From IMG/VR virus record IMGVR_UViG_2609459833_000010, positions 1 to 5,101 of that record: DNA of 5,101 nt; one strand, written 5' to 3'. The position numbers were made by a program, and so were the translations under genes. Positions within the stretch are counted from its first letter, which is position 1, and each line of letters begins with the position of its first letter. The notes below the pieces were generated by a model, which worked only from the letters and a program-made list of their open reading frames with translations, was not told the origin of the DNA and ran no database searches. The stretch comes from a virus (Duplodnaviria; Heunggongvirae; Uroviricota; Caudoviricetes). Below, piece by piece: positions 3,022 through 5,101 of the stretch.

Positions 3022-3096
3022 GGCTGAACTCCTGAAAATGGCTGTGAAAATATCGCCCGCGAAATGCCAGGCTGATTAGGAAAACAGGAAAGGGGA

Positions 3097-3507
3097 TTAG
3101 TGATTCAGGCCGTTGCCTCGTCCGTCGAGAAAAACTTCCACGAGCAAATCACGGGTATAAGTGCGCTCGATGCCGCGATGCAGATATAGCCGTCCGCGTA
3201 AATTAGCTGATGCTGTCCAGGTACCATCTTTGTGTTTGACCAGCATTCCTGGCATGACCGCACCGCGATTAACGGTCTGCGTTCCGTAATGTTGATGAAC
3301 CATAAAAACTCCTGCCCGTAAGCTGGGCTGCTGAACATATAAAGACTTCTGCGCGTATTCAGGCGGTGGATGGCCGCCGGTTGTCATAACTAAGCCGCCT
3401 CGTTGAAGCGACTGAGGTATGAAATGTTGAGTTAATTTCAGCTGGTCACACCGACGTTCACGCGTCCGCTTCACCCCTCGCACTTCCCGGAGCCTGCTGA
3501 AATTCAA
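3097..3507 (-). CDS. Hypothetical Arg-rich protein or gene remnant; no ATG at the head of the ORF
   Basis: 136-codon open frame, and the plus strand here is closed in all frames. The frame opens right after a stop at 3517-3519 and its first start-like codon is TTG. The first ATG is codon 41, preceded by GAGG about 10 nt upstream, which would give 96 aa. No family recognised. Confidence 0.3.
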   Translation of the reverse strand: MNFSRLREVRGVKRTRERRCDQLKLTQHFIPQSLQRGGLVMTTGGHPPPEYAQKSLYVQQPSLRAGVFMVHQHYGTQTVNRGAVMPGMLVKHKDGTWTASANLRGRLYLHRGIERTYTRDLLVEVFLDGRGNGLNH

Positions 3508-3588
3508 GCTACGGATCTAAGCGGTCATCGCAACGGTGAATCAGGTGGTTGCCGTATCGTTGTGTTGTTGCGATATGATGATAATAGC

Positions 3589-3625
3589 TATTGCTATTGG
3601 TGATATCAATACTTATTGCTATTGG
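3589..3625. repeat. Two perfect copies of a 12-bp direct repeat, TATTGCTATTGG, 25 bp apart in AT-rich intergenic DNA
   Basis: Read directly: 3589-3600 and 3614-3625. Each copy is itself a GCTATT-type tandem, and both lie in the AT-rich spacer between the terminator at 3747-3774 and the ORF at 3097-3507. Confidence 0.5.
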
Positions 3626-3746
3626 CTGATGTGTTTTGATATTAAATGTTTGATAGCAAAAAGAATTAATTTTGTGACTTGCATCGCATAGCGATAACTG
3701 AAGCAGGGGCATGGTGGTTTTTTGAACGGTGTGTGATGAGGGGAGG

Positions 3747-3774
3747 CAAAAGAAAACCCGGCACGACGGCCGGG
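3747..3774 (-). terminator. Intrinsic (rho-independent) terminator downstream of the membrane-protein gene
   Basis: On the minus strand, a GC-rich hairpin CCCGGC-cgtcgt-GCCGGG (3757-3774) is followed by TTTTCTTTTG (3747-3756), starting 9 nt after the TGA stop at 3783-3785. Confidence 0.55.
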
Positions 3775-3782
3775 GAGGGGGG

Positions 3783-4289
3783 TCATTTTAATCTATCAAG
3801 GAGTGACTCTCTTTCCTTCTTCTCTGATTCTCTTCGGTTTAATAACGCTTTAAACTCTTGAAGCTCAACCATTATTTTATGAACGAATACACTGGTATAG
3901 AGAGAAATAAAGAGTAATCCACCTGAAATTTTTAAGACCCTGAAGAGTAGGGCTTGATCATTTGTGCTTGCTATTAACCCCAAGATTACAAACAAAGTTG
4001 AAAATACATAGAAAGCTAATAATAAAACCAATTTCAGTCTCTTGGATTTGACTATTGGCACTAATCGCCTAACCTCACTAGGGGTTAAAGACGAGTGGTC
4101 ATTGGCCTCATTTGCCTTAAAAATGGCTTGTATACAATATGATAATGGCAATTGCATGAGTCCAACCACAGCCCACGGAGCTGTTAGGACAACACCCGGT
4201 GTAATATAGCCCAATGCTGACTTGAACAAAAAGTAACCAGCAACATAGAAGACCAACATACCAATAAGGTGGATGATGTTCGATTTCAT
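3783..4289 (-). CDS. Predicted integral membrane protein (about 4 transmembrane helices, charged C-terminal tail), function unknown
   Basis: 168-aa ORF with an ATG start and a canonical AGGAGG Shine-Dalgarno 5 nt upstream. Hydrophobic stretches sit at about residues 5-22, 30-57, 85-107 and 112-136, followed by a Lys/Glu/Arg-rich tail (LQEFKALLNRRESEKKERESLLDRLK). The gene is AT-rich and starts 21 nt after the upstream gene's stop. Confidence 0.75.
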   Translation of the reverse strand: MKSNIIHLIGMLVFYVAGYFLFKSALGYITPGVVLTAPWAVVGLMQLPLSYCIQAIFKANEANDHSSLTPSEVRRLVPIVKSKRLKLVLLLAFYVFSTLFVILGLIASTNDQALLFRVLKISGGLLFISLYTSVFVHKIMVELQEFKALLNRRESEKKERESLLDRLK

Positions 4290-4310
4290 TATCGCCCTCC
4301 TTTTGGTAGG

Positions 4311-4781
4311 TTATTTTGCAACCAATTCTCCGGCATCAAGTTTTGAGAACAGCCACTTATGCATTTTTAAGAATAAATCATTTTCATCAATAATGCCATT
4401 GTTATGTTCAACGCTAATTTTTCCGGATAATTTTATCTCTTTTCCCGTTATTTCCCCACCGCCTTGAAGTTTGATGCTAATATCATCCTCATCTAGATGT
4501 CGTAGTGAGGTAGCAATACTGTCTATAACAGCTTGACCGCTATCATTTGTTTTTCTGAAGTATGTAATCTCGAGGCTTACTTGTAAATTGGCCTCATCTA
4601 ATGAATCTTTAATGTTTATATCATTTGCCCAGTTATCGCCAAAAAATGCTTTTAGTAGCGCACCTCCTTTCCCTATTGGGCGGTATTTTATTGTCTTCAC
4701 CGAACCATTTGAAAAGGAGGGTGTTTGGTTCTCTGAATTTTTAACTTCTGAAGTAATGGGTAATCTGATCTTACCCAGCAA
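4311..4781 (-). CDS. Hypothetical soluble protein, first gene of the two-gene cassette; 5' end apparently truncated by the IS3 insertion
   Basis: 156-codon frame ending in TAA at 4311-4313. The head of the frame (4766-4781) is IS3 inverted-repeat sequence and the first start-like codon is a TTG inside IS3. The native portion (4765 and below) has no ATG until near the C-terminus, and its only GTG (codon 28) has no Shine-Dalgarno. No family recognised. Confidence 0.55.
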   Translation of the reverse strand: MLGKIRLPITSEVKNSENQTPSFSNGSVKTIKYRPIGKGGALLKAFFGDNWANDINIKDSLDEANLQVSLEITYFRKTNDSGQAVIDSIATSLRHLDEDDISIKLQGGGEITGKEIKLSGKISVEHNNGIIDENDLFLKMHKWLFSKLDAGELVAK

Positions 4782-5101
4782 TAGTGGACACGCGGCTAAG
4801 TGAGTAAACTCTCAGTCAGAGGTGACTCACATGACAAAAACAGTATCAACCAGTAAAAAACCCCGTAAACAGCATTCGCCTGAATTTCGCAGTGAAGCCC
4901 TGAAGCTTGCTGAACGCATCGGTGTTACTGCCGCAGCCCGTGAACTCAGCCTGTATGAATCACAACTCTACAACTGGCGCAGTAAACAGCAAAATCAGCA
5001 GACGTCTTCTGAACGTGAACTGGAGATGTCTACCGAGATTGCACGTCTCAAACGCCAGCTGGCAGAACGGGATGAAGAGCTGGCTATCCTCCAAAAGGCC
5101 G
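4766..5101 (+). mobile_element. IS3 (IS3 family), left end and start of orfA; continues beyond the window
   Basis: The left inverted repeat begins at 4766 (TGATCTTACCCAGCAATAGTGGACACGCGGCTAAGTGAG...), followed by the orfA start at 4831. Recognised as the E. coli IS3 left end. Confidence 0.93.
4831..5101 (+). CDS. insE: IS3 OrfA (transposase N-terminal helix-turn-helix / leucine-zipper protein), 3' end outside the window
   Basis: Translation from the ATG at 4831 (MTKTVSTSKKPRKQHSPEFRSEALKLAERIGVTAAARELSLYESQLYNWRSKQQNQQTSSERELEMSTEIARLKRQLAERDEELAILQKA) is recognised as IS3 OrfA (InsE). It is absent from the ORF track only because no stop falls inside the window. Confidence 0.93.
   Translation, partial: MTKTVSTSKKPRKQHSPEFRSEALKLAERIGVTAAARELSLYESQLYNWRSKQQNQQTSSERELEMSTEIARLKRQLAERDEELAILQKA

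Follow-up and report, generated by a model that had tools for sequence, protein, structure and literature searches.

The window, by which we mean the whole stretch of 5,101 nucleotides analysed, is the early-left arm of a lambdoid, Bievrevirus-like prophage. Its genes lie on the minus strand and comprise those for a TraR/DksA zinc-finger protein, for lambda orf61-, orf63- and orf60a-like proteins, exo (YqaJ), bet (RecT) and gam, and then kil (3097-3303, minus strand; 68 codons plus TAA), which encodes a cell-division inhibitor of the KilR / phi80-Kil type. kil heads the early-left operon kil-gam-bet-exo, and the immunity region lies upstream of it. A scan for promoters returned TTGATA-17-TATTAT (3609-3581; 10/12) as the sole promoter-like match on the minus strand, and this match is overlapped by two CCAATAGCAATA repeats and by CAATAnnTATTG palindromes (3618-3607, 3593-3582); together with these operator-like repeats, the candidate pL spans 3581-3625. 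The AATAGCAAT core of the repeats recurs in the cI-cro intergenic region of an identical prophage (L003), and the hexamers are kept in Citrobacter and Kluyvera loci, with a changed spacer. We infer that the site at 3609-3581 is pL/oL, which would give kil a leader of about 270 nt. No N gene lies between the predicted pL and kil. A mosaic boundary with other immunity types is found near 3530-3545, and the promoter-proximal part of the leader has much C and little G (C 30-35%, G 12-17%), a composition that fits a putative Rho loading site.

The interval from the repressor gene to the predicted pL also holds an AT-rich (37.5% GC) two-gene unit (3783-4289 and 4311-4781, both minus strand), whose placement and arrangement are those of lambda rexA-rexB and whose end is marked by an intrinsic terminator (3774-3757; CCCGGC-CGTCGT-GCCGGG followed by TTTTCTTTTG, together 3747-3774 on the minus strand). 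In the full copy of the unit (L003:6762-8312) a 340-aa protein is followed by a 168-aa multi-pass membrane protein. The unit matches only function-unknown PHROGs (33638/3482 and 16807), PADLOC, Pfam and NCBIfam gave no match to it, and it possibly represents an uncharacterised pair acting in exclusion or abortive infection. The segment is flanked by two insertion sequences (~4766-5101 and 1-276), both of which are missing from the otherwise identical prophage of E. coli OkiPb01701. An IS3-family element (HTH_Tnp_1 orfA from 4831) removes the N-terminal half of the 340-aa gene and leaves positions 78-220 of PHROG 33638, and 1-276 is the 3' end of a Mutator/IS256-family transposase gene.

In a preliminary description, 3097-3507 (minus strand) had been treated as one unassigned, Arg-rich frame of 136 codons with no ATG at its head. 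The ORF listing bears out the frame and its TTG head; the first ATG is indeed codon 41 (3387-3385), with GAGG 10 nt ahead of it as read from the sequence, and the second is codon 69 (3303-3301). The opposite strand is closed across the frame, as had been stated, the largest ORF inside the span being only 42 aa (3161-3289, plus strand). Arg accounts for 16 of the 136 residues, the GC content of the frame is 52% (about 50% had been given), and the DNA to the right is AT-richer, with 45% GC at 3508-3782 and 37.5% at 3783-4790. Ahead of the TTG the frame stays open for another three codons, as far as a TAG at 3519-3517. The frame had further been judged unlikely to be open by chance at this length, which holds for the 3' half, a real gene, but not for the 5' extension, which is unremarkable in length (by our own calculation, 68-71 open codons have a chance probability of ~(61/64)^71 = 0.03).

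The kil gene and its start codon

Residues 60-136 of the translation match PHROG_294 ('Kil protein for bacterial septation inhibition'; E=2e-38), and positions 1-70 of the NCBIfam model NF008465 (PRK11354, 'FtsZ inhibitor protein', the Rac KilR model) align with residues 69-136 (E=9e-17). The score against NF008465 is 61-63 bits, under the NCBI curated cut-off of 92 bits, and by its sequence the gene is placed in the broader KilR / phi80-Kil family, outside the narrow Rac KilR subfamily model. BLASTP against K-12 KilR gave 36% identity over 61 aa (E=9e-13) with M1 on M1 (MVHQHYGT / MIAHHFGT), and tblastn gave 85% identity with HK225 Kil and 41% with phi80 Kil. The preliminary description was right that the frame occupies the position of lambda kil and resembles neither lambda Kil nor cIII: its sole PHROG match is the KilR-type one, and a Pfam scan of the 136-aa translation returned 0 families at E<=1, because PF27398, which the homologues carry as a precomputed assignment, was missing from the Pfam set searched. 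What it missed is the second, non-lambda kil family (Rac KilR / phi80 Kil), which includes this gene.

The gene is already known and annotated, and it is neither new nor broken. RefSeq WP_000233576.1 ('phage encoded cell division inhibitor protein') corresponds exactly to 3097-3303 in the 100%-identical chromosome of E. coli OkiPb01701, and the same 207-nt gene is annotated in phages 4A7 and HK225 (HK225 Kil is 68 aa long). The stretch 3022-3774 is present in 2,021 of 5,426 complete E. coli genomes (at least 80% query coverage, mostly 90-99% identity), and a HMMER search of 1.84 billion representatives returned only 66 matches, the distant ones among them (<60% identity) being mostly 62-79 aa long and aligning from their residues 1-4. 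Homologues of about 96 aa had been expected in the case of an intact small gene; the search did recover homologues that are intact small genes, but their length is about 68 aa, not 96 aa. The AF2 model of the 68-aa Kil (pLDDT 80.6) contains six beta strands and floppy ends, with low confidence at residues 1-5 and in the last block, and PDB sequence and fold searches returned no meaningful relative. Its beta core and floppy ends agree with the description of the AF3-predicted KilR (PMC12482147), in a comparison of one prediction with another.

A 96-aa protein starting at codon 41 had been offered as one reading of the frame, but the family N-terminus, the cross-genus homology boundary, a strong Shine-Dalgarno sequence and RefSeq all place the start at codon 69. 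The Shine-Dalgarno sequence AGGAG (3309-3313, minus strand; read from the sequence) lies 5 nt ahead of the kil ATG, and an SD-like GGAG/GGGA at the same place is the only upstream feature that all genera compared have in common. Profile position 1, M1 of KilR and the first residues of the distant representatives all align to codon 69. When comparing the loci of Citrobacter, Kluyvera, Enterobacter, Silvania and Pseudocitrobacter, we observe that the Kil protein is 79-87% identical and that nucleotide homology begins exactly at the codon-69 ATG and ends at the stop. The variable columns of the kil core are distributed by codon position as 17/11/54 in this unbiased cross-genus comparison (p=2e-9), and as 0/1/16 among the polymorphic sites of close relatives (minor allele count >=2 here and below), in which the third-position bias is inflated by the choice of that set for an identical core protein.

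Several further observations concern the surroundings of kil and its public versions. In the Citrobacter, Kluyvera and Enterobacter loci (L005-L011) the kil leader differs and holds a conserved palindromic block, TTCCGCCAGCCTGGCGACAAGGGCAAA; their kil upstream regions show in-frame open stretches of 44-73 codons without conserved starts, and a YdaE-like zinc-binding gene follows kil, as in Rac. A shadow ORF of 77 aa with an ATG start (3105-3338, minus strand, +1 frame) overlaps kil and has no support. Phage Perceval (OV696612.1 PERCE_41) annotates an over-long 420-nt / 139-aa version as 'phi80 Kil homolog', many metagenomic calls are of 96 aa (the 96-aa form, P0002, counts 472 member sequences), and public protein sets (P0002, P0005-P0007 and others) contain over-extended or frameshift-chimeric kil versions, the chimeras having the +1 frame start 'MFSSPAYGQEFLWF'. 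Such versions are gene-calling or assembly artefacts. In itself, the finding does little more than correct an over-extended ORF call to a gene already in RefSeq and in several phage records.

The leader and its conserved module

We compared the 5' half of the frame (3304-3507, minus strand; 204 nt) across 87 loci with an essentially identical kil core, taken from E. coli genomes, phages and IMG/VR contigs. CAG has become TAG at codon 32 in 27 of the 87 loci, four carry a frameshifting 5-nt insertion, and in one a different leader extends to 52 nt ahead of the kil ATG; across genera this half cannot be aligned at all. Its polymorphic sites are distributed by codon position as 7/3/5 and show no codon periodicity, in contrast to those of codons 69-136. 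The 84 nt just before the kil ATG hold two polymorphic sites, with 0 of 28 third positions affected (16 of 68 in the core; p=0.005), a degree of conservation that exceeds that at synonymous sites of kil. In 108 of 111 close relatives the frame that opens at the invariant codon-41 ATG is unbroken, whereas in L219-type relatives (same kil, other spacer) and in other module-preceded kil genes this frame ends after 16-39 codons. That the window's frame is open from codon 1 is explained by this leader variant happening to lack an in-frame stop, and the Arg/Gly-rich translation by the first 35 codons coinciding with a G-rich stretch (G 33-43%). We conclude that the frame is very probably an intact kil gene (codons 69-136) together with an untranslated leader (codons 1-68), and not one gene.

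Part of the leader recurs widely. By blastn, 3424-3342 is 79-97% identical to stretches in HK225, phi80, HK639 and phages of Enterobacter, Salmonella and Klebsiella, in which the neighbouring genes are far more diverged than this module. Its order is 'CATACC', a hairpin with a phage-specific stem, a 26-mer, a variable spacer and 'GAAGTCTT'; the core (3360-3423, minus strand), consisting of hairpin 1, the invariant 26-mer and hairpin 2, matches our covariance model (CM R1) with 93.7 bits. The 26-mer TTATGACAACCGGCGGCCATCCACCG (3364-3389, minus strand) holds the codon-41 ATG and the GGCGG/CCGCC hairpin, and exact matches to it occur in at least 120 IMG/VR contigs. Among 206 module copies examined, more than 30 different first genes lie downstream, with their ATGs 84-107 nt away, and outside the window's lineage a terminator made of a hairpin and a T-run nearly always stands immediately ahead of the module. 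Depending on the copy, the frame opened by the codon-41-type ATG spans 15 to 226 codons, and the conserved block GAAGTCTT (3342-3349, minus strand) is read in three different frames in different phages. These variable frame lengths, the block read in three frames and the out-of-frame kil copies indicate that the ATG belongs to a nucleotide-level element, and its in-frame fusion to kil here appears to be incidental. In one IMG/VR contig (L195) we observe two same-strand module copies about 600 nt apart (6646-6708 and 7252-7309; 68.8 and 50.7 bits).

Hairpin 1, AGTCGCTTC-AAC-GAGGCGGCT (3393-3413, minus strand), contains the GAGG in its 3' arm, and all of its variants fold as a hairpin of 8-10 bp. 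When 24 distinct sequences are aligned in the same register, 96% of the cells are paired and five pairs show compensatory changes. In a covariance-model alignment of 45 distinct sequences, which is fitted to the model and therefore favours structure, 97% are paired versus 30-52% when the partners are slid, and both sides change in 7 of 11 pairs. A first RNAalifold run, on a MAFFT alignment with the variants in different registers, missed this hairpin. On the opposite strand its many U.G pairs would read as A.C, so that hairpin 1 is to be read as an RNA hairpin in the kil sense; the module scores 60-94 bits in sense and 18-31 bits in antisense. Hairpin 2 (GGCGG-CCATCCA-CCGCC; 3362-3378, minus strand) is invariant and so lacks covariation support; in HK639-type copies a T-run comes after it and the annotation calls it a terminator. 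Directly 5' of the Shine-Dalgarno sequence lies hairpin 3 (GCCC-AGCTTAC-GGGC; 3314-3328, minus strand), which alternates with GCGC...GCGC and GCC...GGC in other copies, a weak signal given one compensatory switch only.

A scan for rho-independent terminators found nothing on the minus strand between 3304 and 3574, and the tails after the hairpins (UUAGUUAU after hairpin 1, UGAAUACG after hairpin 2) are neither of them a proper U-run. Minimum free energies of the leader were no better than those of shuffled sequences (z = -0.84 for 272 nt and +1.4 for 117 nt), an Rfam scan of the whole window gave no match at E<=1, and inspection by eye for promoters inside the module found no acceptable -35/-10 pair on either strand. 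A literature search for a 15-mer of the module found no occurrence in the papers covered, and searches on HK639 and phi80 tL1 likewise turned up nothing useful. The leader module is an unannotated cis-RNA with a probably cis-regulatory role, in which it may act on termination or translation ahead of the toxic kil.

A putative gate ahead of a toxic gene

We propose that 3303-3097 (minus strand) encodes a 68-aa Kil, all-beta in the model, which would be the first product of the early-left operon. By homology to KilR, this protein would block host cell division by disturbing FtsZ ring assembly, possibly also MreB, and would act on prophage induction or when transcription reads through. KilR itself blocks Z-ring assembly and, at high dose, MreB, its disordered C-tail being needed and its first six residues dispensable (PMC12482147), and kilR is silenced by Rho/NusG and released under oxidative stress via OxyS (PMC5793797). 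The leader of about 270 nt would start at the pL-like promoter (3609-3581), from a predicted transcription start, and would include the upstream 68 codons, which very probably lie outside the translated Kil; along it would follow the covarying hairpin, the invariant 26-mer with its chance ATG, the second hairpin and the small SD-adjacent hairpin. In other lambdoid phages the module sits after the tL1 terminator, ahead of whichever gene is first, and by analogy it may limit or time kil expression, with Rho-dependent or translation-coupled termination, or mRNA stabilisation, as possible routes. As a tentative reading, we suggest that a widespread structured cis-RNA gates the gene after tL1, here kil, and that its mini-frame is fused to kil in this lineage, with a minor N-extended Kil as a possible product. 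The module is a testable candidate for keeping toxic early genes quiet or timed in many lambdoid phages, and kil-type toxins, which Rho/NusG keep silent in K-12, shape prophage-host interactions.

Two other readings of the module are each unlikely in our judgement. The first takes the ATG-41 mini-ORF (MTTGGHPPP...) as a translated leader peptide, with translation or polyproline stalling controlling termination or kil translation in an attenuation-like manner. The ATG and the first 8-9 codons, including Pro-Pro-Pro, are invariant, hairpin 2 lies inside the mini-ORF and is the element that bears the T-run and terminator annotation in HK639-type copies, and the rho-dependent tL1B of phi80 is annotated about 115 nt downstream. 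However, neither the length of the mini-ORF nor its sequence past codon 9 is conserved, the GAGG is sequestered in hairpin 1, of its letters only GAG never varies, and a Shine-Dalgarno spacing of 10 nt is long; the lack of synonymous variation makes constraints on peptide and on RNA inseparable. Alternatively, the module could be a mere recombination linker, that is, mosaic boundary sequence functionless as RNA, as its place at junctions ahead of many different genes and its unexceptional folding energy might suggest. Against this improbable reading, the pairing of hairpin 1 is kept through seven compensatory pair changes with strand-specific G.U pairs, and the sense scores of the module lie far from the antisense ones.

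It is very doubtful that codon 41 serves as a real initiation site in the leader, fused in frame to kil here and yielding a 96-aa Kil isoform. Its ATG is invariant with GAGG 10 nt upstream, the frame from it is intact in nearly all close relatives (as counted above), gene callers often give the 96-aa form (P0002), and N-terminally tagged KilR is still active (PMC12482147), so that an extension could be tolerated. On the other hand, the GAGG falls in the 3' arm of a 9-bp hairpin with covariation, and the 26-mer is invariant at all codon positions, which argues for constraint at the nucleotide level and not on a peptide. The same ATG moreover opens frames of 15-226 codons before more than 30 unrelated genes, with the downstream block read in three frames, other module-preceded kil genes are out of frame with the module, and the extension is absent from family members outside this clade. 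Finally, the reading first put forward, that the frame is what remains, at the 3' end, of a longer gene cut by acquisition of the AT-rich segment to its right, could draw on the lack of an ATG at the frame head and on the compositional change that adjoins it at ~3508, but is scarcely tenable given full-length homologues of 62-79 aa (the length of the family) that align end to end with codons 69-136, no homologue with a conserved N-terminal extension, upstream sequences wholly different between genera next to a 68-aa core 79-87% identical, stops and frameshifts in the 5' part of relatives, and a mosaic boundary (~3530-3545) that falls in the promoter-proximal leader, outside the frame.

Comparison with known kil genes and leader elements

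The module is homologous to sequence inside the tL1 regions of other phages (phi80 tL1A/tL1B, the annotated terminators of HK639), but the window's hairpins are without a proper U-run and the preceding intrinsic terminator of those phages is missing. HK022-type put RNAs are two-stem structures of about 70 nt; putL closely follows pL, and putR is found some 270 nt downstream of PR. In the window, the module is some 150-210 nt away from the predicted start; in other phages it comes after N and a terminator, and in HK639 the putL-like RNA (L100:1344-1469) is annotated apart from the module copy (L100:2481-2543); by position and by this separate annotation, we provisionally set aside a put RNA as the identity of the module.

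Lambda Kil, a 47-aa ZipA-dependent FtsZ inhibitor, shares with the gene described here its map position by gam and, by analogy, its kind of target, and many E. coli prophages carry a lambda-type kil at this very spot, but there is no sequence relationship between the two proteins. KilR and lambda Kil are likewise unrelated (PMC12482147, PMC5793797), and the toxicity of KilR is independent of ZipA, unlike the mechanism of lambda Kil (PMC12482147). Phages phi80 and HK225 have the same Kil family and the same leader module as the window. In phi80, the module comes after N and tL1A (which is right after N) and other ORFs lie between module and kil, whereas the window has neither an N gene nor a tL1A-type terminator ahead of the module.

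Rac KilR (E. coli K-12 b1352, 73 aa) is homologous to Kil here and is likewise a small beta-rich protein with floppy ends, encoded in the early-left region of a lambdoid prophage with a long leader ahead; by analogy, toxic inhibition of FtsZ (and MreB) would be expected here too (PMC12482147, PMC5793797). The two differ in the C-tail, which is ...DGRGNGLNH here and has a Glu-Ser-Trp end in KilR, and in the genes after kil, which are gam-bet-exo here and ydaE-racC-recE in Rac. They differ as well in the leader: that of Rac starts 273 nt upstream of kilR and holds the KilS sRNA with its intrinsic terminator (PMC8175672), KilS (L013:6406-6503) ending at GGCGGCATCAG...CTGATGTCCGCC and a T5 terminator 176 nt before kilR. 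Pairwise alignment found no homology between the window's kil leader and the Rac kilR-kilS region, and CM R1 has no match in K-12 Rac (L013). With neither a KilS homologue nor a terminator in the window's leader, the two kil lineages represent different leader solutions of similar length (~271 and 273 nt).
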